From the sequence record NZ_AP026977.1: a stretch of 51,855 bases of DNA; one strand, given 5' to 3'. Below the pieces are notes generated by a model. The model searched no databases, was not told the origin of the DNA, and saw only the letters and a list, made by a program, of their open reading frames with translations. This document shows positions 148-51,821 of the stretch, one piece after another (positions within the stretch are counted from its first letter, which is position 1; each line of letters starts with the position of its first letter). This stretch comes from a plasmid. The translations under genes were made by a program, and so were the position numbers.

Positions 148-556
148 GACGCACTTCCTTTCCGTACCTCGGCCCCTCCTCCGGGATACGCCCACTGGGC
201 TCAGCGCGCATCCGGATCGGTTCCCGCTGAAGAAGCTTCAGTCACGCTGAATACGCACGGTTCGCGCGAGCAAGTTATGGCCCGTGGGGTCCACCGCCAA
301 CGGAACTGGCGGTTAGCCGCTACCGCACATAGTGTCCGGAGTCGGCGCGGCCACGTCGCGGCATTCGCCCAGGTCGTAGGCGGAGTTACCGCACATAGGC
401 CGCAGCTATGCGCGATAACCCGCTACCGCCAGTTTTCGCAGAAATGGACTGGAACCCGGGAAGGTCGCAGGTCAGGGCGCTGCGCATCTCACAAGCGCCA
501 GATCTCGGGAATCTGGACCCCATGGGCCGTCTACACCCGGGCAGCTCGGTGAGCTG

Positions 557-680
557 CTGGGTTGTCGTTCCGCCCCATCCCCTTCGTACGCAGGCTTCCG
601 ATTTCTCGACCACCCTCACTCTGCGTACCTGGAGCGAGGGTGGTCGAGAAACCGGGGATAGGGCGGAACGACAACCCAGG
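557..680. repeat. nested inverted repeat (cruciform or structured-RNA-like): outer 26-bp arms, inner 13-bp arms
   Basis: CTGGGTTGTCGTTCCGCCCCATCCCC (557-582) pairs with GGGGATAGGGCGGAACGACAACCCAGG (654-680). Inner arms CTCGACCACCCTC / GAGGGTGGTCGAG. CGTACGCAG / CTGCGTACC is also present. Confidence 0.45.
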
Positions 681-788
681 AAATGCCTCGAATGAGCAGG
701 GGTGCCGTATCTATCCGGAGGCAAGCCGGGCGAAGCTGGCGCGGCAGTACCGCTGGCAGGGCCGTCCGCCGGTCTGAGACGCGCGGCC

Positions 789-1079
789 TCAGGCCAGCTC
801 GGGCCACCCGCCAGGGTTGTTTGCGTTGGCCGGCCAGTCACAGTAATTGGCTTGCGGGTTCCAATTCAGGCCGGGCGGACACGACTGCAGGACCCACTGA
901 CCGGCGTTGCACTGGTAGTACTTCGTCGGGTCAGGGGCGGGGGCGTAGCCAGAGGTACAGGATTGGGCACGGTTGAGTCCGGCGTGGTCGGCGAGGGCCG
1001 AGGGTGCGGCGGCGAGCGTGAGACCGAAACCGAGCAGCAGTGCGGCGGCGGGTGGGGCAAGGACGCGGGCGAGTCGCAT
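789..1079 (-). CDS. small secreted protein with peritrophin-A / CBM14-like chitin-binding domain
   Basis: Internal Met start gives MRLARVLAPPAAALLLGFGLTLAAAPSALA (signal peptide), then CTSGYAPAPDPTKYYQCNAGQWVLQSCPPGLNWNPQANYCDWPANA. This matches the CBM14 consensus C..G.Y..P.D...YY.C..G......CP.GL.FN.....CDWP.N. The upstream part of the 177-aa ORF looks non-coding. Confidence 0.6.
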   Translation of the reverse strand: MRLARVLAPPAAALLLGFGLTLAAAPSALADHAGLNRAQSCTSGYAPAPDPTKYYQCNAGQWVLQSCPPGLNWNPQANYCDWPANANNPGGWPELA

Positions 1080-1516
1080 GGTCGTCTTCTTCCGGTGAGG
1101 TGCAGGGCCGTTCCGATCATGACATCGGCTGGGCGGACACGAGTGTGGGCGCGCCGCGCCGGCGGCTGGAAGGCGGAGGTCCAGGCGTCCGCGTCGGGTT
1201 GAAAACGGCCTGCGCCGGGACAGATTGGATGTCCGGATACATCTACCGCATCCTGATAGCGAAATCCTTGCTCTCCCATACGGCCCGTGGGGTCCATCTG
1301 CGCGAAACCTGGCGGTAGCCAACGGGATAGCGCTCTGACCAGGGATGTTTCTAGCGGCCAGTCCAAATCTGCGAAATCTGGCGCTAGCGCGCTATCGCGC
1401 ATAGGTTCCGAACTATGTGCGGTAACCCTTATGCCGACCTGGGGAAACGACTCTTCCCGGGGTGCGACGACTCCGGAAATTATGTGCGGTAAGGCTTACC
1501 GCCAGATCTGACGGAC

Positions 1517-3202
1517 TTGGACCCCGCGGGCCAACTCCTCGTCAAGTCCGAACAGGGCCAGGCCCGCGCCGAGGCCCGCCTGCAGGCGAGGCGGCAGGAC
1601 AATCCGACGGCGGCCGTTGCGGCGCTGGCCGATGCGCTGATGTGGCACCCCAACTCCGAAATCGCCACCAAGCACCTGCGCCAGCTCACCTACGACTACG
1701 CCGAGCAGTGGGGCGTGCTCATCGACGCCGAGAACTTCAGCGTCAGCATCGACCCGGACTTCGATGGGGTCGCTGCGCAAGACCACGCCGAGGCATGGCG
1801 GCTGTTCGACCGTGAGTCCGCCGTGATGGACATCGTGTCCGCCATGCCGCTGCTGGACACCGCGAAGGATGCTGCGATGCAGGCCATTTCGGTATGGCGG
1901 GGAATCGGGATCTCCCCGGCCGATCCACGGGCGCATCTGCGCGATGAGGCGACGCGCCGGGATCACCTGAGCTTCGATCTGGCGGCGGCGAAGCTGCCCG
2001 AGCCCGACCGGGCCCGTGTCGAGTTCGTCGTGGACTACCTGCGTGGGAACACCGCCGACGTCGACCTGCTCGACAGCCCGGTCCTCGTCGACCCGGGTGA
2101 GGAGGCCCGTGGGCGGGTGCCGCGTCTGCTGGAGTTGTTCGCGAGCAACCCGAAGGCCGCGTCGGTGGTGGGCGAGGAGATCTCGGTCATGACCGCCGCC
2201 GACCAGGACCGGGTCCGCCAGGCCGGGAAGCAGATCGCCCGAGGTGGTGAGGTCGATTTCAGGCTGTGGCCCGATCACATCGACCGCTACGAGCTCGCCG
2301 AAGCACTCGCCGATTACGCCGCCGATTTCGGCGAATTGCGCAGCGTGGCCGACTATCTCGCCGACGACGGCTATAGCGCGGAGGAACGTGAGCGGCTCGG
2401 CGCGAACGACATTCCGGGCGTCACCGACGAGACCAGCGACCGGATCACCCGCCTGGCGCAGCAGCGTGAACAGCTGCGCGCCACGATCCAGACCAGCAAG
2501 GGGCTGGCCGCCGTGGAACGTGCCCAGCTCTCAGCTGTGCTCGCCGACATCGACACCGGAGCCATCCGCGACCACAAGCAGCTGCCGGAGCTGTTGTTCG
2601 CTGACGAGCGCACCAAAGCCGACGCGGACGTCGTTCGTGTCGGTGTGCCCGCGTCCCGGCTCTCGGCCGCGACCCGGGAAGCGATCACCCAGCGCATCGA
2701 GGCGTCCGGCATCGCACCCCAGGGCTGGGATGCCGAACGCCTCAAGGGCGCTGTGTCAGCGATCGGGGATTCGCTCTACACCGTGGCCTGCGGCGCCCGC
2801 GGCAACGGCGGCATCGAGGCCGAACGCAAGTCCTACGCCGACAAACGCGCCCGCCTGGGCACGCAGCTGGCCAAGGCGGGCGTCGGTGAGGAGGCACGAA
2901 CCGAGATACGGGAGCTGATCGACGAGCGGGCCCGCCAGGCCGGGGAATTGGGCAAGACCGCCGCGCAGCGCAAGCAGCAGTGGAAGGCCAAGCTCGATCA
3001 CGCCGTCGCCGCCCGCAACGACTCCATCGCCCAGCGCCAGGCCGCAGCCGCCGGCCGCGCATCGGGCTCCGGGCGAGCCCGCGCACCCCGGCCCGACCGG
3101 GATCCCGCCCAGGAGGCTCACGTGCAGGCCCAGGCCCGCGCTCAAGCCCAGACGCGGGCCGCCGGGCGTCGTGAGCTGCACTCGCCGGAGATCGGGCGAT
3201 GA
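1517..3202 (+). CDS. paralog 1 of a ~450-aa helical domain family (homologous to the primase C-terminus and to 48999-51221); TTG start, N-terminally truncated relative to its paralog, possibly a decaying copy
   Basis: Shared blocks LADALMWHPNSE / SVSIDPDF / VDPGEEARGRV / AKLPEPDRARVEFVVDYLRGNTADVDLL / RLWPDHIDR align with 49366-51221 (~50% identity) and with primase residues ~470-900. In-frame stop at 1490; first start is TTG. Confidence 0.5.
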   Translation: MDPAGQLLVKSEQGQARAEARLQARRQDNPTAAVAALADALMWHPNSEIATKHLRQLTYDYAEQWGVLIDAENFSVSIDPDFDGVAAQDHAEAWRLFDRESAVMDIVSAMPLLDTAKDAAMQAISVWRGIGISPADPRAHLRDEATRRDHLSFDLAAAKLPEPDRARVEFVVDYLRGNTADVDLLDSPVLVDPGEEARGRVPRLLELFASNPKAASVVGEEISVMTAADQDRVRQAGKQIARGGEVDFRLWPDHIDRYELAEALADYAADFGELRSVADYLADDGYSAEERERLGANDIPGVTDETSDRITRLAQQREQLRATIQTSKGLAAVERAQLSAVLADIDTGAIRDHKQLPELLFADERTKADADVVRVGVPASRLSAATREAITQRIEASGIAPQGWDAERLKGAVSAIGDSLYTVACGARGNGGIEAERKSYADKRARLGTQLAKAGVGEEARTEIRELIDERARQAGELGKTAAQRKQQWKAKLDHAVAARNDSIAQRQAAAAGRASGSGRARAPRPDRDPAQEAHVQAQARAQAQTRAAGRRELHSPEIGR

Positions 3203-3642
3203 CCCGCATCGACCCCTCGAACACCCTTCCCACCATGGCATTCGGAGACATCACCATGACCCGCACCGACGAACCCACCCCCGACACCGCCGCACTGGAG
3301 CGTCACCAGCGGACCGTGACCCGCATGTCGACCTCACGCGGGAGCCTGCTCACCGCACTGCTGGGGCCGACCGAACTGCTCGCTCCGCGTCACCAGGAGG
3401 TCATCGACCACACCGCCCAGAACATCGAGTTCGCCCTGTGGCGGGTCGCCTTGGTCTCGGACACGGCCGAGAGTATGGCGCTGTATCACCGTTCCCGGAT
3501 CGAACTCACCGCAGTGCTCACCTGCGCCGGGATCACCGCGGCAGCGTTGAACGCGATCAACATGCTGCTCACCGACTGGGTCCGCGAAGCCGAACTCCTC
3601 GCCACCCACGCACCCGCACCGGAACCGGTGGTGGCGCGGTGA
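3199..3642 (+). CDS. hypothetical protein (147 aa), translationally coupled (ATGA overlap) to the upstream gene; absent from the second module
   Basis: ORF with high GC3; start overlaps the stop of 1517-3202. No recognisable domain. Confidence 0.45.
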   Translation: MTRIDPSNTLPTMAFGDITMTRTDEPTPDTAALERHQRTVTRMSTSRGSLLTALLGPTELLAPRHQEVIDHTAQNIEFALWRVALVSDTAESMALYHRSRIELTAVLTCAGITAAALNAINMLLTDWVREAELLATHAPAPEPVVAR

Positions 3643-3944
3643 CCGACACCGAAGCCGTCGACTTGCACGTCATCGCCCGCCTCGACGATCCCGCTGGTGC
3701 GGTCGCCGATCTCTACTCCTGCGAGCTGTTCTACAGCGACGACGGCAGCGTCTACGGCCGACACGTCAGCTGCCGGTGGGAATCCATTCCTACCGAACCG
3801 GGTGCGGCGGCCAGCCTCGACGCGCTCGATCAGGCGCTCGCCGCCGCCGGGTACATCCGCACCGGCGAGTGGCGGCGTAAGACCACCAGTTCCGGCGCGG
3901 TGCGGTACTTCACCGTCGCCACGATCCGAATCGAGGGCATCTGA
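3639..3944 (+). CDS. conserved hypothetical protein (101 aa), paralog of 51218-51526; GTG start overlapping the upstream stop (GTGA)
   Basis: VTDTEAVDLHVIARLDDPAGAVADLYSCELFYSDDGSVYGRHVSCRWES...RTGEWRRKTTSSGAVRYFTVATI is ~90% identical to the copy at the window end. Confidence 0.6.
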   Translation: MTDTEAVDLHVIARLDDPAGAVADLYSCELFYSDDGSVYGRHVSCRWESIPTEPGAAASLDALDQALAAAGYIRTGEWRRKTTSSGAVRYFTVATIRIEGI

Positions 3945-4300
3945 TGAAGACAACACCGCAGGGAACCAGGCAGCGTGTGCTCGCTGTGTGGTGGCGCGGC
4001 CTGCGTCACGAGGTCGTGCACGCGCGGCGGTTGCGGCGGGCGCTGCTGTGCGCCGAGCTGAGCGTGCGGGGTGTGGCGCACGCCAGCGGCGGGGACGCGG
4101 TCACCGTGCGTGTGGACGGGCTGTGGTTCGACGTGTACGCCTGGCTGCGCGACGACGCCGGTTTGACCTGGGTGGTCGACCACCCGCACGCCGAACTCGA
4201 CGACGAGCACCCTGGCCGCGAGATCGGTCGTTGCGGCGGCTTCCGCTTTCCCCTCGACCAGTTGCCGGTGATGTGGGCGCGCTACCGAGGTACCGACTGA
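3944..4300 (+). CDS. hypothetical protein (118 aa); ATG overlaps the upstream stop (TGATG)
   Basis: ORF in operon context, followed 4 nt later by a very strong hairpin. Confidence 0.4.
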   Translation: MKTTPQGTRQRVLAVWWRGLRHEVVHARRLRRALLCAELSVRGVAHASGGDAVTVRVDGLWFDVYAWLRDDAGLTWVVDHPHAELDDEHPGREIGRCGGFRFPLDQLPVMWARYRGTD

Positions 4301-4303
4301 GCA

Positions 4304-4362
4304 CCCAGTAGGCAGGGCAGCCCCGGAACCCGCAACGTTCCGGGGCTGCCCTGTGTACTGGG
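4304..4362. terminator. bidirectional terminator-like hairpin (~25-bp interrupted stem, 7-nt loop) between convergent genes
   Basis: CCCAGTA-G-CAGGGCAGCCCCGGAAC ccgcaac GTTCCGGGGCTGCCCTG-TG-TACTGGG. A near-identical copy lies at 51763-51821. Confidence 0.6.
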
Positions 4363-4542
4363 CTACTTCTTCCCGCCGCTCTTACCGCTGCCGGACTTCG
4401 CCGCGCTCGACTGAGCACGGGAAGCGAACCCGGACTTCGCTGAGCTGCTGCCCGGGTTCTTCGCCGCCGCGGACTGGACTCGGGACGCGGCTGCAGTGGG
4501 CATCTTGCCGCCGCCGTGGCCCTTCCCGCCTGACTTCGACAT
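4363..4542 (-). CDS. small Gly/Ser/Lys-rich basic protein (KGG-repeat-like), copy B, 59 aa
   Basis: MSKSGGKGHGGGKMPTAAASRVQSAAAKNPGSSSAKSGFASRAQSSAAKSGSGKSGGKK. Strong RBS GGAAGGAG 6 nt upstream. Against copy A there are 10 synonymous and 2 nonsynonymous differences in this frame. Confidence 0.65.
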   Translation of the reverse strand: MSKSGGKGHGGGKMPTAAASRVQSAAAKNPGSSSAKSGFASRAQSSAAKSGSGKSGGKK

Positions 4543-4610
4543 GATGCACTCCTTCCCTACTTCGGGCCCCTCCTCCGGAATACACCGGCCTGCCCTGGCC
4601 TTCACAGCAG

Positions 4611-4659: not shown

Positions 4660-6411
4660 TCAGGCAATCGCCTCCGCCGTGTGGAGGATGGCCCGCAGCC
4701 GAGACCCGATCCACGTACCCACAGACGGGCTCACGGCGTTGCCGAACCCGTCGCACTGATCCCTGGCCGACCCCCAGACGATGAACTCGCCCTCGTGCCC
4801 GGGGAAGGTGGTGTCGAATCCGCACCCCCTGCCGACCTCGTGCGGGCCGAGCATCCGGAAGAAGCAGTCCTCCACCGACAGATCCGTCAGCGCCGCGACC
4901 CATTCCGCGGTGAGCAGTCCGGGGATCTGCTCGGAGGTCACGGTCGGCATCGGCTCGGCGCTGAGGGTCGGGGTGGTGTTCTTCCGGAACGGAATGACAC
5001 CGGACATCAAGCTCAGGGTCTCCGAGGCGAGTGTCGTCGGTAGCGGCTCGGACACCCCGCGTGGGGCGCCTTGGTAGTTGTTCACCGACGCGAACAGCAT
5101 CGCCAGCTCATGGGTCGAGGTGACCGTGTCCATGGGCTGGCTGAGGTGTTTGCCGTCGCCGTTGTGCCGGTGCGCGGCGAACACCGCCCCAGTCGCGAGC
5201 GCCACCGGTGGAGTGACCAAACCCGTGGTGTTGGTGGCGGTCTGCGCCCACAGCGGCTGGCTGAGATCACGAGTCCGGCACTCCGATCCGGGCCGCTCGA
5301 ATGTGTTCCCAGCCGCGACCATGATGGCCCCGGTCGACAGGATCGCGGTCTCCTGCTGGCTGGTTTGCGTCACCAATGGCTGCCACGGGTGACGCTCCGA
5401 CCCGTGGACAGATTTGGCTGGCATGAGGATTGCCGGGAACTCGGCGAACCTCATGCGGCAGCGCTCGATCCGCGCCATCGTCGTCGGCCGGAGCGGCTTC
5501 GCCCGGTCCCCAATGCGGGTGCCCAGATTGGTGAGGTCCAGGGCGTGCAGTGACGGGGTCATCGGTGGGACCACCTCGCGGCGGCACCGTGGGCACCGGT
5601 AGTTGTACTGGGTGCCGTAGCGCACGGCCCCGGACAACGGCACCCCGGTCTTCCACGACCAGACCGCCTCCACGACGTCGTCGCAGGTGTGGCAGCGCGT
5701 CAGCGGGCGGTGGTCCAGGTCCGGGGTAGGCAGATGCCGGTCCCAGAATGCGATGTAGAGCCGGTCTCTGCTTTGCGGCACCCCGAAGAACATGGAGTTG
5801 AGCCGCATCTCCCGGTAGCGGTAGCCCAGGATCTCGAACTGCCGCAGCCACCAGCGGTAGGTGGAGCCGTCACCGATCTTGGTCTTGCCCGGGATCGCCG
5901 GGCCCCACGACACCAGTTCGGTGGTGCACTCGACGAGGATCAGCCGCGGGTGATGCTGGGCGGCGTAGTGCAGCACGCAGTTCGCGGTGGCCCGGTCGCG
6001 CTCGCTGCGAGTGACCCTCGCCTGGAACTCCGGGTCCTCCATTTCGAACAGAGTCAGGCCCTGCTCGTAGGCCTTGACCGTGTTCGCCTGCGAATGGTTC
6101 ACACACGAGACACCCGCAGCGAGGAGATCGGCGGCAGGCAGGTCACGCGCCGAGTGATAATCCGACGACTCCGGATCGACGAGATCGGCGATCCAGTGCT
6201 CGGCGTGCGGGTTGTTCCGCTCGTGAACCCGGATCTTGTACTCGTTGTGGTTGGCGGCCATGATCGTCGTGAATCCGGCGTCTTCGATGCCCCGGGTCAG
6301 CCCGCCGAACCCGCTGAAAAGGTCGACCGCAACGAGATCGTCGTGACGGAAACGGCGCCGCCGCGTGGCCGGTCGATGCACAGCGGTCCGAAGCTTCGTA
6401 GGCACGGTCAT
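4660..6411 (-). CDS. DNA (cytosine-5)-methyltransferase family protein (583 aa)
   Basis: Motif I DLFSGFGGLTRGIEDAGF. Motif VIII-like GVPQSRDRLYIAF. Large C-terminal region presumably a target-recognition domain. Confidence 0.65.
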   Translation of the reverse strand: MTVPTKLRTAVHRPATRRRRFRHDDLVAVDLFSGFGGLTRGIEDAGFTTIMAANHNEYKIRVHERNNPHAEHWIADLVDPESSDYHSARDLPAADLLAAGVSCVNHSQANTVKAYEQGLTLFEMEDPEFQARVTRSERDRATANCVLHYAAQHHPRLILVECTTELVSWGPAIPGKTKIGDGSTYRWWLRQFEILGYRYREMRLNSMFFGVPQSRDRLYIAFWDRHLPTPDLDHRPLTRCHTCDDVVEAVWSWKTGVPLSGAVRYGTQYNYRCPRCRREVVPPMTPSLHALDLTNLGTRIGDRAKPLRPTTMARIERCRMRFAEFPAILMPAKSVHGSERHPWQPLVTQTSQQETAILSTGAIMVAAGNTFERPGSECRTRDLSQPLWAQTATNTTGLVTPPVALATGAVFAAHRHNGDGKHLSQPMDTVTSTHELAMLFASVNNYQGAPRGVSEPLPTTLASETLSLMSGVIPFRKNTTPTLSAEPMPTVTSEQIPGLLTAEWVAALTDLSVEDCFFRMLGPHEVGRGCGFDTTFPGHEGEFIVWGSARDQCDGFGNAVSPSVGTWIGSRLRAILHTAEAIA

Positions 6412-7959: not shown

Positions 7960-8670
7960 CTAGGGCGGTGTGAAACCGTCTGGCCACTGTGTAGTGAGGT
8001 CGTAGATGATGCGGGTGAGGTCCGTGCGGGTGAGGTTCGCGCCCCTGAGATCCGCACCGGTGAGATTCGCGCCGGTGAGGTTCGCGCCAGTGAGGTTCGC
8101 AGCACCGAGCAAGGTGTTGATGAGGTTCGCGCCGGTGAGGTCGGCATCGGTGAAATTCGAGTACGGGATGAAAGCATGGGTGAGGTTCACCGAGGCGAGG
8201 TTCGCGCGGGTGAAGTCCGCGTGGGAGAGCATCACCTCGGAGAAGTCGCCTCCCGCCAGGCAGGTCAGGCGTAGGTCCAGCTTGTCGGCGAGGGGTTCGG
8301 GACCCAGGACGCGACGTGTGATGACAGTCAGTACCGCCTGGATATCGGCGGGCATCGGTTGCAGGGGGCTCTGTGTTCGGCATTCGCCCGCGTTCGTGTG
8401 CGTGCGCAGGAACGCTGAAAGCATCGCGAAGACGGTCGGGTGATCGGCGGGGGAGTCTTTGGCGAGCCGCTCCAGCAAGTAGATACCCGACAGGCGGACA
8501 TCGACCTTGTCGGAGGCAAGTTGTTCGGCCGCCAGGCGAAAGCGGTCGGTCACCGCGGTTTGCTGCGATAGGGAATACTGGCTGTTCGTCGCGCGCAGAG
8601 ACTGCGCAGTGAACCACAGAGCACCAGCGGCGGTGAGCGTCGCACCGAGCGTGGCCACTGTCGTAGCCAT
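7960..8670 (-). CDS. pentapeptide-repeat protein with N-terminal transmembrane segment (start assumed at internal Met; ORF extends to 8802)
   Basis: C-terminal A(N/D)LTGANLTGANLTGADLRGANLTRTDL repeats. MATTVATLGATLTAAGALWF hydrophobic segment. Confidence 0.6.
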   Translation of the reverse strand: MATTVATLGATLTAAGALWFTAQSLRATNSQYSLSQQTAVTDRFRLAAEQLASDKVDVRLSGIYLLERLAKDSPADHPTVFAMLSAFLRTHTNAGECRTQSPLQPMPADIQAVLTVITRRVLGPEPLADKLDLRLTCLAGGDFSEVMLSHADFTRANLASVNLTHAFIPYSNFTDADLTGANLINTLLGAANLTGANLTGANLTGADLRGANLTRTDLTRIIYDLTTQWPDGFTPP

Positions 8671-9291
8671 TGCCGCTACTTTCGTCCACCCCGACCAATG
8701 CAGTAATCGACCAGCTCGGGATGCTCGGGGCGCGGGGGGCCTCAGCGAACGTCCCCGGCCTGCGACTAGACCGCGCCGCGATGTCGTTCCCCCCGTGCCC
8801 ATGCGTCATCTCCTTCGAAAGCGCCTGCCACTCCGATAGTCAGGATCGTGCACTCGCTTGGCCGACTCGCGAGGAGGATCCGGGTACTCACTTCGTTCCA
8901 ACGGCGTGAGATACCCCTGGCCACTATGTCCAAACTTCTTGCCCAACCGCACCAGTTGCCGGGTGTCGAGAATCGTTCGGTTTTCGGACACTCGACACCC
9001 AGCGCCAAAGGCGCGGAATACCAGCGCATCGCGTTGTCCAAGAAGCGTGTCCAGCCGCGAGGGAAGCGAGGTCGGGCCCGGGCGGGTGGTCGTAACGTCA
9101 CCGGACCCAACACATCAGCCTGAAGCGGGTGCCGAGGACGGCCTGCAGACCGTCGAGGCCCGTCGCTCTACGCGGAGCGACGGGCCTCGATGCACAGACG
9201 CGGCTGCGCTACGCGAATGGCTTGATCATCCGCGGGATGTAGCTCTGGACCGGTTGGTAGTCCTCGTCACCCGGGCGCTTCCGGAACGGAG

Positions 9292-10127: not shown

Positions 10128-10596
10128 GTCGTCCCCTCCGTTGGTTTGAAGGTATCTCCTTCACTGCTCTTGGACGATGCTGCGGCACAACAGGTTCCAT
10201 CAGTGACCGGTGTCACAAGGTGATGTTCCTTGTTTGTTCTGCAGCATCTACGAGCAGCCCACCAGGCACGAAAAATCTGCCCGATACGGCCGACGTCATA
10301 CGCGCCACAATCTGCCGTAGACGAGCTATTGGGGTTCCGGTAGTAACCGCCGAAAAACCAACGGATATGCCGTGGCTGGTCGCGGGTGAGTCCTGGTTCA
10401 TCCTGCGGTGATGGCCTGTTGCTGGTTGGCTTGGCTCCCAACGCTATTGGTTGGTGCCGGAGGTCGGGTTCGTGGCAACGCGGGTGTTCGCGGATGAGGA
10501 GTTGGCGCGGCTGCGGGAGTTCCCGGAGATCGGTCGTGAGGAGTTGTTACGTCGGGGACCCGCGGTTCCGAATGGCGAGCCCGACATATGCAGAAG

Positions 10597-11241
10597 TTAG
10601 GACTTACTGCGTGCGAAAAGAATCGCTTGCTGAGCTTTCGCATCCGGGTCGAGCAGCATCTGGGCCTCGACCACGAATCCGGCATCGTGCAGCCAGGATG
10701 CCACCTGGTCAGGCTGACGGCGGTGGACATGGACCTTCATCGGGTGACCGCCGTAGCCCTCCGTCTTCAACCGCGACTCGTCGCCGACGTGAAACAGGAG
10801 TTGCAACGGTCCGCCGGGACGCAATGCTCGGTGGAAGCGTCCGAATACAGTCGGCACCTCGTCGTCTGGGATGTGGATCAACGACTGCCAGGCGAGCAGG
10901 CCGGCCACCGAAGCGACGGGCAGGTTCAGTTCCGTCATCGAGCCCACCTCGAACCGCAGGCCGGGGTGGTCGCGCCGGGCCACGTCGATCATCGCCGGGG
11001 AGAGGTCGATACCGAAGGCGTCGACACCGAGCTCATGCAGGTGGGCGGTGACTTCACCGGGGCCGCAGCCGACGTCCGCGACCGGTCCGCCGCCAGCGGT
11101 CCGCACGCTGTCGGCGAACAACGCCAGAGCCGCGCGAAGGTACTGGTGTCCGGCGAGGGCGCCGCGCACTTGGTTGGCATAGCTGACCGCGACCGTGTCA
11201 TAAGAGGTTCGGGTGTCGGCCAACCAGTCATCCGTGGTCAT
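10597..11241 (-). CDS. class I SAM-dependent methyltransferase (214 aa from internal Met)
   Basis: Motif I VADVGCGPGEVTAHL. Motif II-like DAFGIDLSPAMI. Confidence 0.65.
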   Translation of the reverse strand: MTTDDWLADTRTSYDTVAVSYANQVRGALAGHQYLRAALALFADSVRTAGGGPVADVGCGPGEVTAHLHELGVDAFGIDLSPAMIDVARRDHPGLRFEVGSMTELNLPVASVAGLLAWQSLIHIPDDEVPTVFGRFHRALRPGGPLQLLFHVGDESRLKTEGYGGHPMKVHVHRRQPDQVASWLHDAGFVVEAQMLLDPDAKAQQAILFARSKS

Positions 11242-11297
11242 GACCGGCACGATATTCCATGATCGCGGCGGACTCGGCGCTACCCGAGAACGACGAA

Positions 11298-11327
11298 GGT
11301 GCCTCCACCCGGCCGGGTGGAGGCACC
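11298..11327. promoter_or_regulatory. 30-bp perfect palindrome
   Basis: GGTGCCTCCACCCGG|CCGGGTGGAGGCACC, in the intergenic region between the methyltransferase and recombinase genes. Confidence 0.35.
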
Positions 11328-11464
11328 GGTAGGCAGGACGGCATTGCTCATTGCGCGGGCCCCGAGAGGCCTTGGCCGACTCTGTCATCCGGGGGCGTGG
11401 GCATCGGTGACTGCGCGAACGGCGGTACGCGTCTGGCCGTGACCGCTCAACGATAGCAGTGATA

Positions 11465-11491
11465 CCCCGGATAATGGCCTGTTATCCGGGG
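11465..11491. other. dif/core-type inverted repeat CCCCGGATAA-N7-TTATCCGGGG upstream of the tyrosine recombinase gene (a degenerate extra half-site lies at 11543-11557)
   Basis: Two 10-bp arms around a 7-nt spacer. Confidence 0.4.
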
Positions 11492-11578
11492 TAACATCGG
11501 AGCCGTGCTGCGGCGACCGCGCTGCCGCGCAGCACGAACCGGCCCCGTTATCCGGGGCAAGCCAGGAGAGGCGGGACG

Positions 11579-12586
11579 ATGGCGGCGAAGGTGACCCGGC
11601 TGCCCACCCCGCCGGCGCGCACTCTGCGCTCCGCGGCCGAGGCGTTCCTGGACACCATCGGATCGCCCAACACCCGCCGCGCCTACGGCATCGCGATCGT
11701 CAAGACCGTCGACGCCCTCGACGGGCCCGGCCCCGACGGACTGATCGGGCGCTCTCGCGCCCTGGACTCGGTCACCGACGCCGAGATCGGCGCGGCGCTG
11801 GAATCGCTGTGGGGCCAAGCTGCGGTCAACACATGGAACTCCCGGCGCGCCGCGGTCGGCAAATGGCTGAGCTGGTGCGCCGAACAAGGCTGGGACGCCC
11901 CGAAACTGCCCGCCTCGGCCGCACGGTCGACCCCGCCGGACTCCGAGACCCCGGTGCGCTCGCGCACCGCGATCGACCGGCTCATCGCCCGCCGCGAGGT
12001 CCATGTGCGGGAGAAGACGCTGTGGCGGATGCTGTATGAAACATGCGCTCGCGCAGAGGAACTGCTCCAGCTCAACATCGAAGACCTGGACCAGGCGAGC
12101 CGGTGCGCCCGGGTGAAGTCCAAGGGCGCCAAACCCCGCACCCGCCGTCGCGGGCCCGCCCACCACGAACACGTCCTCGAGATCGTGTACTGGGACGCGG
12201 GCACCGCCCGGCTGCTGCCCAGGCTGCTGCGCGGCCGCACCCGTGGACCGGTGTTCGTGACCCACCGCCGGCCAGGGCCCGGCAAGTACCTCGCCGACCG
12301 CGATGTCTGCCCCGATACCGGGCTGGCGCGGCTGTCCTACGACCAGGCCCGCGATCTGCTCGACGCCGCCACCGCGATCGATGGTCCCGGCACCGGCTGG
12401 GACCTGCACGAACTCCGCCATTCGGGCCTAACCCACCTCGGGGAATCCGGGGCCAGCCTGCTCGAACTGATGGCGAAATCCCGGCATCGCAAGGCCGAGA
12501 ACCTGCGCCGCTACTTCAAACCGTCACCACAGGCGATGCGCGATCTCACCGCGCTGCTCGGCCCGGGAGCCGACCGCCGACGCTGA
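11579..12586 (+). CDS. tyrosine site-specific recombinase (phage integrase / Xer family)
   Basis: C-terminal catalytic signature ...[40 protein letters not shown] (R..HxxR..Y). Confidence 0.85.
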
Positions 12587-12641
12587 GCTGCGTCGTTTCC
12601 ATATCCGTTGTTTTTTCGGCGATTGCTACCGGGACCCCCTA

Positions 12642-14073: not shown

Positions 14074-14709
14074 ATGGGAAGAAGACGCGGTCGCCGCGGA
14101 TCGGACGTAGCGGCGTTGATGTTCATGGCCGCCGTTGCCGCGCTGGTGGTTGCACCCAAGGTCGCGGACATCGCCGCACGGCACGCCGTGGCACTCGCTT
14201 CTGTCGGGGTCTGTGTGCTGGCCGTTGCTGTCGTCGCCGCCGGGCTGGCGGCGCGGCATCGCCGTCAGGTACGTGCTCGCGATGACGCGCGGGTGTTGGC
14301 GGCGCTACGGCAGAACTCGCTGAGTCCCTCCGAGTTCGAGGAGGCGCTGGCCGCGTTGTGCCGCCGCGACGGCTGCACCGATGTCCGAGTGGTCGGCGGA
14401 TCCGGTGACCTGGGCGCCGACGTGATCGCCCGGGCACCGGACGGCCGCCGAGTCGTGCTGCAAGCCAAGCGATACCGCAACGACCGCACCGTGGGCAGCC
14501 AAGACGTGCAGCGCTTCGGCGGAACCGCGCACACCATCCACGGTGCCCACGTGGCGGCCGTGGTGACCACTGCACACGCGTTCACCCCGCAAGCACGCGC
14601 GTACGCGGCCGAGGCCAGGATCCTGCTCATGCCCGCAAAAGCGCTCGCAGCATGGGAATCACAAACCGGTCCGACTCCTTGGGACACCCTCGCAGATAAG
14701 TTGCGATAA
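14074..14709 (+). CDS. Mrr_cat-type restriction endonuclease domain protein with two N-terminal TM helices
   Basis: GGSGDLGADVIARAPDGRRVVLQAKRY...VGSQDVQRFGG...AAVVTTAHAFTPQARAYAAEARILL, typical of the Mrr catalytic core. Confidence 0.6.
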   Translation: MGRRRGRRGSDVAALMFMAAVAALVVAPKVADIAARHAVALASVGVCVLAVAVVAAGLAARHRRQVRARDDARVLAALRQNSLSPSEFEEALAALCRRDGCTDVRVVGGSGDLGADVIARAPDGRRVVLQAKRYRNDRTVGSQDVQRFGGTAHTIHGAHVAAVVTTAHAFTPQARAYAAEARILLMPAKALAAWESQTGPTPWDTLADKLR

Positions 14710-15339: not shown

Positions 15340-15900
15340 TCAGGCCGTGGCGGCGTCGGCCCGTAAGTACGCGTAGACGGTTTCACGGCTGACGCCGAAC
15401 TCCTTGGCCAGCGCGGCTTTCGACACCCCGCCGGCGGCACGGGCGCGCAGTTGGGTGGCCTGCTCGGGAGTGAGGGCGGGTTTGCGGCCGGTGTAGGCGC
15501 CGCGAGCCTTCGCCGCGGCGATGCCCTCACGCTGGCGCTCGAGGATCAGGGCACGTTCGAACTCGGCGAAGGCACCCATCACACTCAGCAGCAGGTTCGC
15601 CATCGGCGAGTCCTCCCCGGTGAAAGTCAGCGCCTCCTTCACGAACTCCACCCGAACACCCTTGCCGGTCAAGGTGCGCACCAACCGCCGCAGATCATCC
15701 AGATTGCGGGCCAGCCGATCCATGGAGTGCACGATCACGGTGTCGCCGTCGCGGACGAAGCCGATCAGCTCGTCCAGCTGCGGACGTGCGGTGTCCTTCC
15801 CGGAGGCCTTGTCGACGAAGGTGCGTTCGACCTCGATCCCGTCGAGCTGCCGGACGGTGTTCTGGTCGACCGTACTCACCCTGATATAGCCAACGCGCAT
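15340..15900 (-). CDS. serine recombinase (Tn3-family resolvase/invertase) with C-terminal HTH
   Basis: MRVGYIRVSTVDQNT... (catalytic Ser region), SMDRLARN, C-terminal HTH KEFGVSRETVYAYL. The ORF extends to 15930 with an earlier Met. Confidence 0.85.
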   Translation of the reverse strand: MRVGYIRVSTVDQNTVRQLDGIEVERTFVDKASGKDTARPQLDELIGFVRDGDTVIVHSMDRLARNLDDLRRLVRTLTGKGVRVEFVKEALTFTGEDSPMANLLLSVMGAFAEFERALILERQREGIAAAKARGAYTGRKPALTPEQATQLRARAAGGVSKAALAKEFGVSRETVYAYLRADAATA

Positions 15901-16510
15901 AACTGACTCTCCGTCCACTTGAAATGTCAAGGTGGAGTCTAAGAATCCAGCGGACGTGTGTCAAGAAATGCAGAAATGGACTCTATTCTGACGCTTTTCA
16001 GTCCGGTCTCGGCTGTGGCGCTGGGGTGTACCTCAACCTGACTATCGGTGAGCGTCCGTCGGTCTGGGGCGTGGGCCACCTCTCGTCAGCGACGTGCCCG
16101 GAACAACAACTGGCACGGCGGAGCATCACACCATCGGGCCGCGCCAACGTGATGATCGTCGTGGTACTTGCGCAGCGCGTCGGCTAGCGCTTCCAGATCG
16201 CCGCGCAGCCTGTTCCGCTCGGACAGCACTTGATGCCACTGCTGATCGATGTCCTCGCTCATCAACGACCTCCCGCAAACCTCTGCCGCCTTGGGCGCGG
16301 CGACGCTCTCGACCGCCCGATTGCTGGAGCGGTTGGCGTCCGTTGACACCACATACCAATGCTGACCTGCGGTTTTGAGTGGTATTCATTGAAAGACGAC
16401 ACGGCGTCTTGGTCGAATTACCGGTGGGCAAAGCCAGTCACAGAGTGGTCAATGGCAGTCAAAAGGTGGCATAAGTAGTCTTATCTGGCCGATGAAGAGG
16501 AGAACGCGCA

Positions 16511-23574: not shown

Positions 23575-23760
23575 GCTCGCCCGAACTCCGCAACCACTCC
23601 CGCAATCTAACTCCGAACTCCGCAACCTACATCCGAACAGAACACCCATCGCTCATCCCCCAATCCCAGGTCACAGCCACGTCTCAACCACCCCTTACAC
23701 CTCTTGCACTGAGGTAACGAACAGATAACGAACAATGGTGTGGGCGTACCGTAGATAACG
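23575..23760. promoter_or_regulatory. repeat-rich region upstream of the relaxase: oriT candidate
   Basis: Direct repeats CCGAACTCCGCAACC at 23581 and 23613. AACGAACAGATAACGAACAA, with the GATAACG motif x3. Confidence 0.4.
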
Positions 23761-23762
23761 TG

Positions 23763-26700
23763 ATGTCACTGGCGAAAATCGCGAGTGGCGATGGATACGA
23801 GTATTACCTGCGCAATATCGCCACCCATGATGCCGATGAGCGCGGCCCGCAAGCGCTTTCGGACTACTACAGCGAGCGTGGGGAATCGCCTGGCCGCTGG
23901 TGGGGTTCGGGCCTGGCCGCGGTGGATATCGCGGTCGGAGACGAGGTCACCGAGTCGCAGATGTGGGCGCTGTTCGGGCGCGGGTGGCACCCGAACGCGG
24001 AGGCGATGATCGTCGAGCGGGTCGCCGAACTACGCGCTGAGGGTGTTTCGGCGCGCACGGCGAAGGCTTCCGCGCTGCGGGAGGTCGCCCGGATCGGGAC
24101 GCCGTTCGCGAAGATCACCGTCGACGAGCTGTCCTACCGCGCCGAATGCCGCCGCGCCTACGAGGGCTGGAACCTCGAACACGGCCGCGATCGGACGGCG
24201 CCGGTGCCCGATGAGGTGCGTGAGATCCTCTCGACCGAGGTCGCCGAGGCGATGTTCGCCGCCGAGTACGGGCGCGACCCGCTGACCGAGGCGGAGTTGT
24301 CGGCGTGGGTGGCCAAGGCCGCCCGGCCGGCGTCGAAAGCTGTTGCCGGGTTCGACCTCACCTTCTCCCCGGTGAAGTCGGTGTCGATGCTGTGGGCGCT
24401 GGCATCGCCCGAGGTCGCCGCGAAGATCGAGGCCGCGCACCAGGCCGCCATCGTCGACGCCTTGGAATTCCTCGAGGCGCACGCCACCTACACCCGGATC
24501 GGGCGCGGCGGTGTCGCCCAGGTCGAGGTGGACGGCCTGCTGGCGACCAGGTTCGACCACCGCGACTCCCGCGCAGGGGATCCCGACCTGCACGCCCACG
24601 TCGTGGTCTCCAACAAGGTCCGCCGCCGCGACGGAGGATGGGGCGCGCTGGACGGGAAGATGTTCTACCGGCACGCCGTGACCGCCAGCGAGATCTACAA
24701 CACCCGCCTCGAACACCACCTCGAAACCGCCCTCGGTGCTGTCGAATTCGTCGAGCGCGACCAGCTCGACGCCTACAAGCGCCCGGTGCGGGAGCTGGCC
24801 GGTGCGTCCCCGGAGCTGGCTGCGGTGTGGTCCTCGCGGGCGGAGGCGATCACGACGAAGCTCGCCGACCTGTCGCGGAAGTTCCAACAGCGTCACGGCC
24901 GGGAGCCGGGCCCGAAGGAGTTGTGGCGCCTATCCGAGGAGGCGACGCTGTCCACGCGTGGCGGCAAGCACCACGCCCGCTCCCGGGCCGAGCAGCGCGC
25001 CGACTGGCGCGCTGAGGCGGTGCGGGTCCTCGGGAGCGAGGACGCGGTGGACGCCATGGTGGCGGGGATGTTGTCGCGGACTGTCCCGCAGCGGGACACT
25101 GCGGCCACGCTGGAGGTGGGTGAGCTGGCAGTCGAGATCGTCGACACCGTCGCCGAGCAGCGCGCGACCTGGCAGGCCCACCACATCCGCGCCGAAGCCG
25201 CCCGCCGCCTGCGCGGCCGCATCACCCCGCACGACTTCGCTCAGGCCTTCACCGAGGTGGTGGCCGCGGCGCTGAGCGATCCGCAGTCCATCCCCCGCCA
25301 CGTCGTCGATCCGACCCCGATCGCCCTGGGGCTCACCCGATCCGACGGCACCAGCGTCTACACCACCGCCGAATCCACCCAATACACATCCCCGGCCATC
25401 CTCGCCGCCGAACAGCGACTACTCGCCGCCGCGCACCTGCCCGGCGGCCACACCCTCCCGGCCGCCGCCGTGGACGTGGCCATGGTCGAGTTCGCCGCCA
25501 ACGGCCACGAACTCAACCCCGGACAGCAAGCCCTGGTGCAGGCTTTCGCGACCTCCGGGCAGCGGTTCCAGGTCGCCGTCGCCCCGGCCGGGACCGGCAA
25601 GACGACCGCCATGCGCGTGCTCACCAACGCCTGGACCAGCGAGGGCGGGACCGTGGTCGGGTTCGCGCCCACCGCGGCGGCGGCCGCGCAACTGGCCGAG
25701 GACTCCGGCGCACCCGCGCACACCGTGGACCTGCTGACCACCCTCGCCGAGCACCTCGACACCGGTGCACTCGATCCGGATCAGGCACCGCAGTGGCTGC
25801 ACGCTATCGACGAGAACACGCTGGTGCTCCTCGACGAGGTCGCGAAAACCCCCACCCTGAAACTCGACGCCGCGGTGCGGTTCCTGATCGGGCGGGGTGC
25901 GACGATCCGCGCGATCGGCGACGACCGCCAGCTCGCCTCCGTCACCGCCGGCGGAATCATCCGCGACATCGTCGAAACCACCGCCCCGATCACCCTGACC
26001 AGGGTGGTGCGCTTCGCCGACCACGGAGAAGCCGCCGCGAGTCTGGCCCTGCGCGACGGTGACCCGGCCGCAGTCGCCTACTACGCCGACCACAACCGCC
26101 TCCACACCGGCACCCTCACCGAAGCCGTCCACAATGCGTTCCGAGCATGGCGAGCCGACCATACTCAAGGCTTCGACGTCGCGCTGCTCGCCCCGACCCG
26201 CGCCCTGGTCACCGAACTCAACGCCCTCGCGCGCGCCGAACGCCTCACCCGCGACGAACATCTCGGCATCCCAACCGGAGCAGAGGTCCCGCTCGGCGAC
26301 GGGCTGAGGGCCTCGGCCGGGGACATCATCACCACCCGCCGCAACTCCCGACGCCTACGGATCTCGGCGACCGACTACGTCCGCAACGGCTACCGCTGGG
26401 AAGTCACCGGCGTGCTCGACGACGGCCGCATCGCCGCAACCCACCTCCGCTCCGGCCGCGCCATCCTGCTGCCCGCGGACTACGTGCGCGAACACGTCAC
26501 CCTCGGCTACGCCACCACCATCGACTCCGCCCAAGGGCTGACCGTGGACCGCTGCCACGGTGTGGTCACCGGTAGCGAGTCCCGCGCCCAGCTGTATGTG
26601 ATGGCCACCCGAGGACGCACCGCCAACCACCTCTACGTCAACACCGCCACCGCGGTAGACGAGCACGCCGCCCACACCTACAGCGCCGTGCACCCGCCGA

Positions 26701-28529: not shown

Positions 28530-28572
28530 GCTGCCGCGCCCTCCCTCACGGGAGGGCTTGCCACACAACCCC
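28530..28572. repeat. direct repeat copy 1 (GCTGCCGCGCCCTCCC...CTTGCCACAC.ACAACCCC) with internal hairpin CCCTCCC tcac GGGAGGG
   Basis: Related copy at 28890-28940. The two flank a small - strand gene. Confidence 0.4.
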
Positions 28573-28591: not shown

Positions 28592-28777
28592 TCAGGATGA
28601 GCCCCGAGCCCCGCAGCAGTCCTCGCAGTAGTGCACCGGATCCAGGCCCTCGCCGGGGTATGTCGCGGACGGTTCGTCAGTGGCGTCCTCCAACTCGTCA
28701 TCCCAACCGGAGATGAACTCCCGGCCGCAGCCACCACACACCCAGACCCACGGATCAGTATCGACAATCTCGCTCAT
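28592..28777 (-). CDS. small acidic zinc-ribbon protein (61 aa)
   Basis: MSEIVDTDPWVWVCGGCGREFISGWDDELEDATDEPSATYPGEGLDPVHYCEDCCGARGSS. Confidence 0.35.
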   Translation of the reverse strand: MSEIVDTDPWVWVCGGCGREFISGWDDELEDATDEPSATYPGEGLDPVHYCEDCCGARGSS

Positions 28778-28889: not shown

Positions 28890-28940
28890 GCTGCCGCGCC
28901 CTCCCCCCCAGCGGGGATGCCTTGCCACACCACAACCCCC
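28890..28940. repeat. direct repeat copy 2
   Basis: See 28530-28572. Confidence 0.4.
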
Positions 28941-30972: not shown

Positions 30973-31927
30973 CCCCGCAGTAGCGCCGTCGACGCCCGGT
31001 CGGAGGCTGCCGCATGACCTTGCCGCAACCGGCTGCTGCGCATCGTGTTTCGTGACATTCAGCCGCCGAAGTAGCCGCGCTGTCACGAAACTCGGAGGTG
31101 TAGTCGAGCGTGGATTCGGTCTGTAGCGGCCGGTTCGACCACAACACCTCGGTCCGCTCCCGGTGCGTTCCGCCCTGGGTGGTCCATGCCGCCAGCTCGT
31201 AGCGGTACCAATCCGGGTACAGCTGCCGGTCATACAGATCGCAGGCATACCCCGACACCACGACCGTCGCCGACGCGGCGTGTGCTGCCTCCGCCAGCTC
31301 GGTGTGCGCGGCCGCCGACATCGCCTCGATCCGATAGTTCCGCGCCCGCGTACCGCCCAGGTACGGCGGATCCAGGTAGATCAGCGTCCGATTCGTGCGC
31401 GGGCCCTGCCCGTAGTCGCGCAACACCTCCACTGCCGGACGGCACTCCAACGACACGCCACGCAGGCGCTCGGCCACCGGTCCGATCCGATCGATGTAGG
31501 ACGACAACCGGGCCGGACCACAGAACCCGTCCTCAGCCGATCGGGCATACCGCCACCCCGTCGTCCGCAACACACCACTGCGTCCCTGGGTCAGCATCAC
31601 CCACACCCGCCGGGCCCGCTCGACATCGTCGACATCAGCGTCCAACGCTCGGGCGTCCTGATGCTCCGCGCGGGCGTGCGGCGTCAACACGCACGCCCGT
31701 TCCAACTCCGCCGGACGGTCACGCAGCACCTGCCAGAACGTCATCAGATGCCGGTCGAGATCGTTCACCGTCTCCATCCGCGACCGCGGCTTCGCCAACA
31801 ACACCGACAGCGACCCCGCGCACGGCTCGACGTAATGCGAATGCGGCGGCAGCAGTGCCGCGATCCGCTCCGCGATGCGAGCCTTGCTGCCGTAATACAT
31901 CACCGGGCTGGCCAACCGACTCATCAC
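30935..31927 (-). CDS. Dam-family (D12 class) N6-adenine DNA methyltransferase with C-terminal Cys-rich tail
   Basis: YYGSKARIAERIAALLP (motif I/X). IYLDPPYLG (DPPY motif IV). Confidence 0.75.
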   Translation of the reverse strand: MMSRLASPVMYYGSKARIAERIAALLPPHSHYVEPCAGSLSVLLAKPRSRMETVNDLDRHLMTFWQVLRDRPAELERACVLTPHARAEHQDARALDADVDDVERARRVWVMLTQGRSGVLRTTGWRYARSAEDGFCGPARLSSYIDRIGPVAERLRGVSLECRPAVEVLRDYGQGPRTNRTLIYLDPPYLGGTRARNYRIEAMSAAAHTELAEAAHAASATVVVSGYACDLYDRQLYPDWYRYELAAWTTQGGTHRERTEVLWSNRPLQTESTLDYTSEFRDSAATSAAECHETRCAAAGCGKVMRQPPTGRRRRYCGDACRQRAHRAAR

Positions 31928-36796: not shown

Positions 36797-37516
36797 ATGA
36801 CGACGGCAGATACCCGCCGAGTCCTGCGAGTCCTGTTCTCGACATTGAAGGGCGGTCCGGGTAAGACGACCAGCGCGATCCTGACGGCGGTGGCGCTGGT
36901 GCGCCGGGGCCTGAAGGTGGTCGTTATTTGCGCCGATACCCGCACGCGCGGCGCGACCGACTGGGTGCAGGAGGCGGAGCGGGTTGGGGACCGGGTGCCA
37001 TTCCAGCTCGCGATCTGGCATGAGAGCGATGGGCCACTGTCGCAGTTCGCCCGGACGACCGAGCGCTCGACCGGCGCCGATGTGGTGATCATCGATACCG
37101 GCGGCGAGCAGCCGGAGAACTTCACCCACGGCTGTCTGTACGCGGACTGGTTGATCTGCCCGGTCGGGCCGTTCCGTGCCGAGCTGCGGCGGCTGGTGCC
37201 GACCTATCAGAGCGCGGTCGCGGTCAACGACTCCGGATCCCCGCTCGAGGTCAGTGTCCTGCTGACCCGCTGCCCGGCCGCGCACAAGGGCAAGGCCAAG
37301 GAGGCCCGCGAAGCGCTCGCATCCAACCTGGTCAATGACCAGGGCGAACTCGATCCAGATACCCCGTACGCGCTGGGCCTGGATGTGCTGAACACCGAGA
37401 TTTCGCGCGGGGTCGCTTACGACGAGTTCTACGGCCTCATCCCCGAAGACGTCGGCGAGTACGACGACCTGGCGGAGGAGATCCTGGCCCGCCAGCGCGC
37501 GGACGAGGCGGCCTGA
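36797..37516 (+). CDS. parA: ParA/Soj-family partition ATPase
   Basis: Deviant Walker A KGGPGKTTSA. RBS AGGAG. Confidence 0.85.
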   Translation: MTTADTRRVLRVLFSTLKGGPGKTTSAILTAVALVRRGLKVVVICADTRTRGATDWVQEAERVGDRVPFQLAIWHESDGPLSQFARTTERSTGADVVIIDTGGEQPENFTHGCLYADWLICPVGPFRAELRRLVPTYQSAVAVNDSGSPLEVSVLLTRCPAAHKGKAKEAREALASNLVNDQGELDPDTPYALGLDVLNTEISRGVAYDEFYGLIPEDVGEYDDLAEEILARQRADEAA

Positions 37517-51759: not shown

Positions 51760-51762
51760 ATT

Positions 51763-51821
51763 CCCAGTAGACAGGGCAGCCCCGGAACACGCAACGTTCC
51801 GGGGCTGCCCTGCGTACTGGG
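51763..51821. terminator. second copy of the giant bidirectional hairpin
   Basis: CCCAGTA-G-ACAGGGCAGCCCCGGAAC acgcaac GTTCCGGGGCTGCCCTG-CG-TACTGGG. Confidence 0.6.

Follow-up and report, generated by a model that had tools for sequence, protein, structure and literature searches.

The stretch analysed here (the window) is the complete circular 51,855-bp plasmid of Nocardia sputorum IFM12275 (NZ_AP026977.1), whose end joins its start and which is of the conjugative type. This work concerns a segment near its start, positions 279 to 1532, in which two related arms in inverted orientation enclose a gene for a chitin-binding protein, and which abuts a shortened second copy of a backbone gene. 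A preliminary description, made from the letters alone, had taken the segment as one insert of about 1.1 kb bounded by imperfect inverted repeats of about 70 bp. The repeats do exist, as 58 of 71 aligned positions (82%) between 385-455 and 1355-1428 are complementary. However, they are merely the best-conserved core of arms of about 250 bp; in a self-BLAST within the window 278-530 aligns with 1280-1533 over 255 bp (72% identity, E=4e-29). Instead of one insert, two elements of about 250 bp are present, each with its own 38-bp terminal repeats. The motifs that the repeats were said to share proved to be real, and three motif types are confined in the window to 279-1532: all six TTACCGCACATAG-like sites with zero to two mismatches (a further one at 1392-1404 has three), all six TACCGCCAG-type sites and all four TGGACCCCRYGGGCC sites. 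Both arms also hold matching open reading frames (ORFs; MRD..L.P.FA..DW), but with a G+C content at third codon positions (GC3) of 0.65 these were rejected as non-coding.

The arms are called TIME-L and TIME-R, after the TIMEs (miniature elements with inverted repeats, derived from Tn3) with which they are compared below. TIME-L (279-528, plus strand) is a 250-bp Tn3-derived miniature element without a transposase gene, and its boundaries are the same as in the copies at L031, L024, L020, L025 and L018, loci from other Nocardia. Its parts follow in the order terminal inverted repeat (IR), A1 site, core palindrome, internal IR-like sequence and second IR. The outer 38-bp IR (279-316, plus strand) reads GGCCCGTGGGGTCCA...CTGGCGGTTAG and is complementary at 27 of 38 positions to the cargo-side 38-bp IR (491-528, minus strand); in other copies the homologous tips are flanked by 5-bp target duplications. 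A1 (320-332, plus strand) is a single 13-mer, CTACCGCACATAG, and a candidate accessory recombinase-binding site, which in loci bearing a recombinase gene (int) lies about 20 bp upstream of the recombinase start codon. The core palindrome TTACCGCACATAG-gccgcag-CTATGCGCGATAA (386-418, plus strand) has a 13-7-13 layout, is conserved beside tyrosine recombinase genes at at least 14 loci and is a candidate crossover site. The internal Tn3-type IR-like sequence, motif B (419-455, minus strand, ...TTCTGCGAAAACTGGCGGTAGCGGG), is homologous to the GGGG...GCTAAG terminal repeat which abuts the site in int-bearing transposons.

TIME-R (1282-1532, minus strand) is a 251-bp miniature element of a second sublineage and is inverted relative to TIME-L. 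On the minus strand it carries the core palindrome TTACCGCACATAG-ttcggaac-CTATGCGCGATAG (1392-1425) in a 13-8-13 layout, the A1 site TTACCGCACATAA (1480-1492) and the outer 38-bp terminal repeat GGCCCGCGGGGTCCAAGTCCGTCAGATCTGGCGGTAAG (1495-1532), and the latter contains the TTG start and the first five codons of the downstream ORF. The site in each arm is made up of a palindromic 13-7/8-13 core and a third copy of the 13-mer. TIME-L and TIME-R are 74% identical and their core spacers measure 7 and 8 nt. TIME-L shares 91% identity with the N. noduli copy (L031) and 87% with the N. amamiensis copy (L024), and TIME-R is 86%, 84% and 81% identical to the copies L025b, L020 and L018. Because their mutual identity is low, each is closer to copies of other species and the spacers differ, the two arms are, judged by sequence comparison, independent members of two sublineages. 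Duplication of one arm in situ by intramolecular replicative inversion was rejected on the same identity values, and the flank combinations predicted for such an inversion do not match.

Between the two miniature elements lie 753 bp of cargo (529-1281). The gene recognised in the preliminary description (789-1079, minus strand; GC3 0.77; protein IFM12275_68930) is predicted to encode a secreted chitin-binding protein of the CBM14 (peritrophin-A) type with 96 aa, and a check with the PF01607 profile confirmed the domain (E=2.2e-11, 44.2 bits at a cut-off of 22.1). By eye the N-terminus of the protein resembles a Sec signal peptide (...APSALA|DH), and its relatives in the PDB are the CBM14 domains of insect and human chitinases and tachycitin. 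The full set of six consensus cysteines is not present: four are found (C41, C57, C67 and C80), as in the Nocardia homolog P0002, and the second consensus cysteine falls into a gap of the PDB alignment, so that one of the usual three CBM14 disulfides is presumably absent. An exhaustive search yielded 1,642 cluster representatives at E<=1e-3. Only one of the homologs is close: it lies on the chromosome of Nocardia sp. NPDC046763, its amino acid identity is 67%, no miniature elements are found near it, and DNA homology to it is limited to 810-1161 (83.6%). Apart from the Nocardia one, 10 of 10 sampled top matches come from animals (beetle, moth and mosquito peritrophins, a hemichordate and a fish). 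In a survey from 2005 Ralstonia was the sole bacterium listed for this domain (PMC554113).

The repeats had been described as enclosing a single gene. However, the cargo also holds a conserved hairpin of 123 nt (557-679, plus strand) and an element resembling an origin of transfer (oriT; 714-752, plus strand). In the hairpin the internal loop is asymmetric and the apical CTGCGTACCTGG invariant, and the DNA fold reaches -58.8 kcal/mol (z=-10). It recurs with 78-84% identity in three other Nocardia plasmids (L002 5001-5122, L003 5015-5136 and L004 5001-5121), where mobC and a MobP-like relaxase gene lie 100-150 bp upstream of it and plasmid-specific short repeats precede it; on the present plasmid it lies about 28 kb from the homologous relaxase. 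Across the four sequences 14 of 44 stem pairs show compensatory changes. Comparison with Rfam gave only sub-threshold matches to miRNA hairpins (e.g., 37 bits at a gathering score of 268), which were discarded. The hairpin is possibly an element of the oriT or single-strand initiation (ssi) type, i.e., a candidate transfer-related cis element. An integron-like reading, with an attI and an attC-like hairpin, was rejected, as the hairpin is a plasmid feature beside relaxases and not a cassette boundary. The oriT-like element, GGCAAG-stem-GCGCGGCAG, matches with 84-93%, in inverted orientation, the element that follows the hairpin in L002-L004. Two further copies lie on the minus strand downstream of the plasmid's own relaxase gene (28530-28564 and 28890-28928). 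All three copies share GTGGCAAG-(G+C-rich stem-loop)-GCGCGGCAGC, and the latter two flank a small Cys-rich ORF (28605-28776, minus strand), which is situated between the convergent genes for the TrwC and MobP-like relaxases.

To the right the structure meets copy B (1517-3202, plus strand; 561 aa, GC3 0.86), a 5'-truncated paralog of the RRQRL-motif protein. The full-length copy A (48999-51221, plus strand; 740 aa) stands in the conserved gene order type IV coupling protein, DUF4913 protein, Toprim protein, RRQRL protein. As proposed earlier, copy B starts with a TTG at 1517 behind an in-frame stop (TAA at 1490-1492). The missing N-terminal part, previously put at about 120 aa, in fact amounts to about 195 aa, since residue 10 of copy B aligns with residue 196 of copy A, and the RRQRL zinc-binding domain, which spans residues 12-86 in copy A (NF041638), is lost with it. 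Copy B is 51% identical to copy A and 56% to the homolog of N. farcinica HB204. The outer tip of TIME-R ends at 1532 and abuts codon 6 of copy B; the truncation point coincides exactly with the tip of the right arm. As homology of copy B to full-length relatives begins at codon 10, the terminal repeat supplies the TTG and the first codons. The related plasmids compared have one full-length RRQRL paralog directly after the Toprim gene and no such structure.

It had been suggested that an insertion truncated the paralog. The position of the truncation at the right-arm tip agrees with this; the lack of a target duplication and of any 5' remnant does not. To its left the structure adjoins the end of a backbone segment termed unit A rather than the 5' part of copy B, and a search across the plasmid found this 5' part nowhere. 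A simple insertion is thereby excluded, and deletion or recombination must also have occurred. The junction may have formed by adjacent deletion during intramolecular replicative transposition, or by recombination through an element copy during the fusion of two related plasmids. We infer that either of these is the most economical reading of the junction, and it would also fit the mosaic second backbone copy. The backbone segment is present as a diverged tandem repeat, with unit A at 49663-51855 plus 1-192 and unit B at 1623-4586. Identity between the units is itself mosaic (67% over the RRQRL-protein gene, 89% over 3626-3940 and 89-95% over 4304-4586), which suggests that two related plasmids fused or recombined rather than that the segment was duplicated recently.

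Relatives of the arms were found through a weak BLAST match to the plasmid NZ_CP107850 of Nocardia sp. NBC_00511, in which the palindrome CTACCGCACATAG-N7-CTATGTGCGGTAA lies about 20 bp upstream of a truncated tyrosine-recombinase gene. A palindrome scan, with one genome per species, gave 26 loci, nearly all from Nocardia, Gordonia or Mycolicibacterium, which fall into two classes. Class I comprises at least 14 loci with a tyrosine recombinase gene, the A1 13-mer, about 53 nt, the 13-7-13 core and then a terminal-repeat sequence. The recombinases have about 313-340 aa (PF00589, E~1e-15), and A1 and the core site lie immediately upstream of the gene. The reverse complement of the repeat reads GGGGTCG..GAGAAA..GGCGCTAAG (37-38 bp), and similarity between the loci stops at GGGG. 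A gapped alignment with what we take to be the 38-bp repeat of Tn3 matches 28 positions, including GGGGTC and GAAAA.TCACG.TAAG. From its length and both of its ends the Class I repeat is classified as a Tn3-family terminal repeat. Genes for Tn3 DDE transposases (PF01526) lie within 2-3 kb in L014, L030, L026 and L011 (E=1e-130, 1e-127, 6e-78 and 1e-17, respectively).

In Nocardia sp. NPDC051990, L023:164-4122 (3,959 bp) carries the recombinase and the site without a transposase, is bounded on both sides by Class I-type repeats GGGGTCGAGGAACAT...GGCGCTTAAG and is flanked by a 6-bp target duplication, CTGCAA. Terminal repeats of about 38 bp with GGGG...TAAG ends together with a duplication of 5-6 bp, which characterise the Tn3 family, are found both in this element and in a second element of the window at 10331-12638, described below. 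For the int-bearing elements of L022, L032, L014, L016 and L035, no far end was located inside the 8-kb loci. At L011, a locus near-identical to L023, a truncated Tn3 transposase fragment lies directly outside the element.

Class II consists of geneless elements of 250-254 bp. At one end they have the 38-nt sequence GGCCCGTGGGGTCCA...CTGGCGGTAAG and at the other its inverse, and inside them lie A1, the core and a copy of the Class I-type repeat. Their boundaries, GGCCCGTGGGGTCCA...TGGACCCCACGGGCC, are identical across the copies, and within the copies the terminal repeats are complementary at 27-33 of 38 positions. They occur in N. niigatensis, N. cyriacigeorgica, N. amamiensis, N. noduli and Nocardia sp. 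NPDC049737 in unrelated chromosomal or plasmid contexts, and the copies of N. cyriacigeorgica and N. amamiensis sit on plasmid-like contigs (Replicase, ParA). Both arms of the window are members of Class II. Perfect 5-bp target duplications flank the copies L020 (TACAT) and L031 (GTCCC). The suspicion that the arms behave as MITEs, i.e., miniature transposable elements with inverted repeats, was thus borne out by related copies in unrelated contexts of other Nocardia genomes, some of them with such duplications. Tips of the GGCCCGTGGGGTCCA type also terminate int-bearing elements in L022, L032 and L026, of which L026 has a tnpA gene.

A two-element composite of 2.7 kb with a target duplication of its own exists in Nocardia sp. 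NPDC049737 (L025:2064-4738) and is flanked by the direct repeat TGCTC(G), which shows that both tip types are able to act together. This composite is bounded by a mini-element of 180 bp, with one GGGG-type and one GGCCCG-type tip, and by a 250-bp element, and its cargo consists of two ORFs without a Pfam match.

The Class II copies, the target duplications, the Tn3-type tips and the L025 composite lead to the interpretation that the arms are very likely independent, diverged, non-autonomous Tn3-derived elements of about 250 bp, i.e., TIME-like MITEs, and that the pair forms a structure of 1,254 bp (279-1532) resembling a TIME composite (TIME-COMP). The inverted copies bracket the 753 bp of cargo, and the outer tips (279-316 and 1495-1532) are intact and correctly oriented. 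The parent transposons of Nocardia and related Mycobacteriales have their tyrosine recombinase gene directly beside the site and carry a Tn3 DDE transposase as well, and the 38-bp terminal inverted repeats would be the sites of Tn3-type transposase action. With transposase supplied in trans, either element or the whole structure could move by paste-and-copy transposition via a cointegrate, which may then be resolved by a TnpI-like recombinase at the core or by homologous recombination. A search of the whole plasmid found no Tn3 transposase gene, which fits the non-autonomy of miniature elements.

Several observations weigh against this interpretation. The terminal repeats of the window copies are complementary at just 27-28 of 38 positions, and the outer tip starts with GGCCCGTGGGG instead of the canonical GGGG, its end being TAAG. 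No target duplication flanks TIME-L (GTTAT/GTCTA), TIME-R (CATAC/AACTC) or the pair (GTTAT/AACTC), so that the junctions do not document transposition into the present site. BLAST searches of PLSDB with the arms gave matches at chance level except for the core site in NZ_CP107850, and no further 250-bp copies were found among these plasmids. The unit 279-1532 was found elsewhere only in two Logan contigs that are 100% identical and presumably derive from the same strain. Neither a cognate recombinase nor a transposase was located in this strain, in which the plasmid was searched, and one accessory repeat was recognised in the site as compared to two in Tn4430's internal resolution site (IRS). 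Since the pair has no flanking duplication and no second site, we call it TIME-COMP-like.

Published TIMEs measure 209-262 bp, have 38-bp repeats, generate duplications of 5-6 bp and may contain a res site (PMC4133298; PMC13367494). The Nocardia elements agree with them in size (about 250 bp), in the lack of a transposase gene and in 38-bp repeats related to those of autonomous Tn3-family transposons, and relatives of the window arms show target duplications of 5-6 bp. TIME composites range from about 1 kb upward, consist mostly of inverted copies and, in databases, are often found with no duplication flanking them (PMC4133298; PMC13367494), and the inverted orientation is the prevalent and stable form in Enterobacteriaceae (PMC13367494). 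Here as well two copies, in inverted orientation, surround about 1 kb of cargo including plasmid-backbone sequence, and flanking duplications are likewise often missing. Further shared features are an internal resolution site, as in IS101 and TIME244, and an occurrence mostly on plasmids. In contrast to the described TIMEs, which stem from Gammaproteobacteria, the host is an actinomycete, and the site is of the tyrosine-recombinase (TnpI/IRS-like) type instead of a serine-resolvase res site. Moreover, identity between the two bounding copies, which represent different sublineages, is only 74%, the tip starts with GGCCCGT ahead of GGGG, and each element has a third, internal IR-like sequence.

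In Tn4430 and Tn5401 the TnpI/IRS module consists of the terminal repeat, a site with an inverted core and accessory copies, and the tyrosine recombinase (PMC2847244; PMC7157771). As of 2020, members of the Tn3 family with TnpI were known from Bacillus only (3 of 190; PMC7157771). Class I shows the same order of terminal repeat, resolution site and tyrosine recombinase gene, and its core likewise consists of two inverted motifs with extra motif copies on the gene side. However, the Nocardia site has a 13-7/8-13 core and one recognisable accessory copy about 53 bp away, whereas Tn4430 has a 14-4-14 core and two accessory copies. The two sites have no sequence similarity, and the likeness is one of layout. 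The Tn3-like mobile insertion cassettes of Xanthomonas also place transposase-free passenger genes between Tn3-family terminal repeats, but their boundary is a bare terminal repeat, while in Nocardia a whole miniature element, which has two repeats of its own and a resolution site, forms each boundary (PMC4337579). Elements of the recombinase-in-trio kind and pdif-type modules were both ruled out by the Tn3-type terminal repeats, the Tn3 transposases and the target duplications. The pdif modules of Acinetobacter share with 279-1532 that plasmid genes are bracketed by inverted palindromic sites of the recombinase type. However, they have 28-bp XerC/D sites and neither transposon ends nor target duplications, while the Nocardia sites are embedded in Tn3-type elements.

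Among the alternatives, the one that survives best is that two unrelated miniature elements inserted independently into a backbone which already held the hairpin and the CBM14 gene, so that the pair never was, and cannot be, a mobile unit. The different sublineages of the arms and the missing duplication around the pair speak for it, as does the hairpin with its oriT-like element, which in related plasmids is sequence of the backbone type. Yet the outer ends are intact and correctly oriented, the comparable two-element composite in L025 did transpose, and the CBM14 cassette is foreign to this plasmid family. We would give this course of events a substantial but minor chance; it is a sub-case of the TIME-COMP-like interpretation, with the same elements and another history.

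A more far-reaching proposal goes beyond the TIME-COMP-like interpretation in the opposite direction. An undescribed actinobacterial branch of the Tn3 family with a TnpI-like recombinase would have spawned the 250-bp elements, and the pair would have packaged an oriT/ssi-like hairpin module together with an animal-type chitin-binding gene, possibly acquired between kingdoms; the cassette would then be transposable and confer conjugative mobilisability. In its entirety we consider this proposal unlikely.

Insertion of a single MITE- or insertion sequence (IS)-like element with inverted repeats of about 70 bp, which also truncated paralog 1 (copy B), would account for the repeats and the gene, which are real, and for the right boundary at the truncation point. 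Each arm, however, is complete with its own terminal repeats and has closer relatives elsewhere than its partner, no target duplication is present, and neither the left flank nor any other part of the plasmid holds the 5' part of the truncated gene; such an origin is therefore very improbable. Equally hard to maintain is the view that the motifs are resident cis-acting sites of the plasmid that serve the divergent flanking genes, i.e., origin iterons, a partition centromere or operators. The symmetric repeats are indeed clustered in an intergenic position between divergent genes, and other Nocardia plasmids have plasmid-specific short repeats preceding the hairpin. However, the 250-bp units occur with target duplications in unrelated chromosomal and plasmid contexts and are absent from this locus in related plasmids. 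An identity as iterons, origin or centromere was rejected, given that the units are mobile and found at other places and that the ParA/ParB-like genes (36797-38454) and the cumulative GC-skew minimum are both at about 36-38 kb.

The last alternative, a site-specific inversion switch in which a tyrosine recombinase flips the 753 bp and thereby alters CBM14 expression or hairpin orientation, is suggested by inverted resolution sites around a gene, by reported inversion within TIME244-bounded composites (PMC13367494) and by one Logan contig that stops at window position 1418, inside the right core, but it has next to no chance of being correct, since identity between the arms is only 74%, the recombinase encoded by the plasmid itself has another site, the orientation does not differ between the two assemblies and the core spacers differ in length and sequence (GCCGCAG as compared to TTCGGAAC), a mismatch that should block strand exchange by a tyrosine recombinase. 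The contig in question, L006 (Logan DRR412799), is from a short-read assembly that presumably represents the same strain; it matches the window with 100% identity and ends in the TIME-R core. No repeated 31-mer accounts for the break at 1418, which could be due to low coverage or to heterogeneity at the site.

The TIME-COMP-like structure is explained by mobile elements of a known class in a form that is new, being actinobacterial, with a tyrosine-recombinase resolution site and an unusual cargo, and as a gene-shuffling structure it is of a known kind which had not previously been described in this bacterial group. As a path for the movement of genes between replicons, TIMEs and their composites are under-annotated. 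So far they have been documented in Pseudomonas and Enterobacteriaceae with mainly antibiotic resistance as cargo, and the Nocardia architecture takes them into a further phylum and into the Tn3 family's rare TnpI branch. It would account for plasmid mosaicism, including the truncated second copy of a backbone gene, and the exact sequences can now be used to annotate such elements in Mycobacteriales genomes. The cargo offers two leads of its own, a conserved hairpin associated with relaxases and a secreted CBM14 protein whose sampled relatives outside Nocardia are all from animals.

The second non-autonomous Tn3-type element of the plasmid (10331-12638, 2,308 bp) has 39-bp GGGG terminal repeats starting with GGGGTTCCGG, and CTATT flanks it as a perfect 5-bp target duplication. 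It contains a paralogous tyrosine recombinase gene (11579-12586), upstream of which lie a 13-7-13 palindrome (11463-11495) and a half-site, and as passenger a gene for an S-adenosylmethionine-dependent (SAM) methyltransferase (10597-11388, minus strand).

Elsewhere the plasmid encodes a TrwC relaxase (23760-28508), a MobC/NikA-like protein and a MobP-like relaxase (28948-31248), as well as the type IV coupling protein, the DUF4913 protein and the Toprim protein. A comparison with a phage collection gave no match, and promoter and terminator scans over 1-1700 gave nothing. An accessory region with genes resembling defence or anti-defence functions encodes a C5 cytosine methylase (4660-6411, minus strand), an Mrr-type endonuclease (14074-14709), a serine resolvase (15340-15930, minus strand) and a pentapeptide-repeat protein (7960-8802, minus strand); the methylase looks like an orphan and adjoins the duplicated unit B. 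Finally, a gene for a Lys/Gly/Ser/Ala-rich protein of 59 aa (MSKSGGKGH..AASRVQSAAAKNP..) is present in two copies on the minus strand (51823-51855 plus 1-147, and 4363-4542), and both copies show about 92% DNA identity to a gene on the N. asteroides plasmid CP082845.

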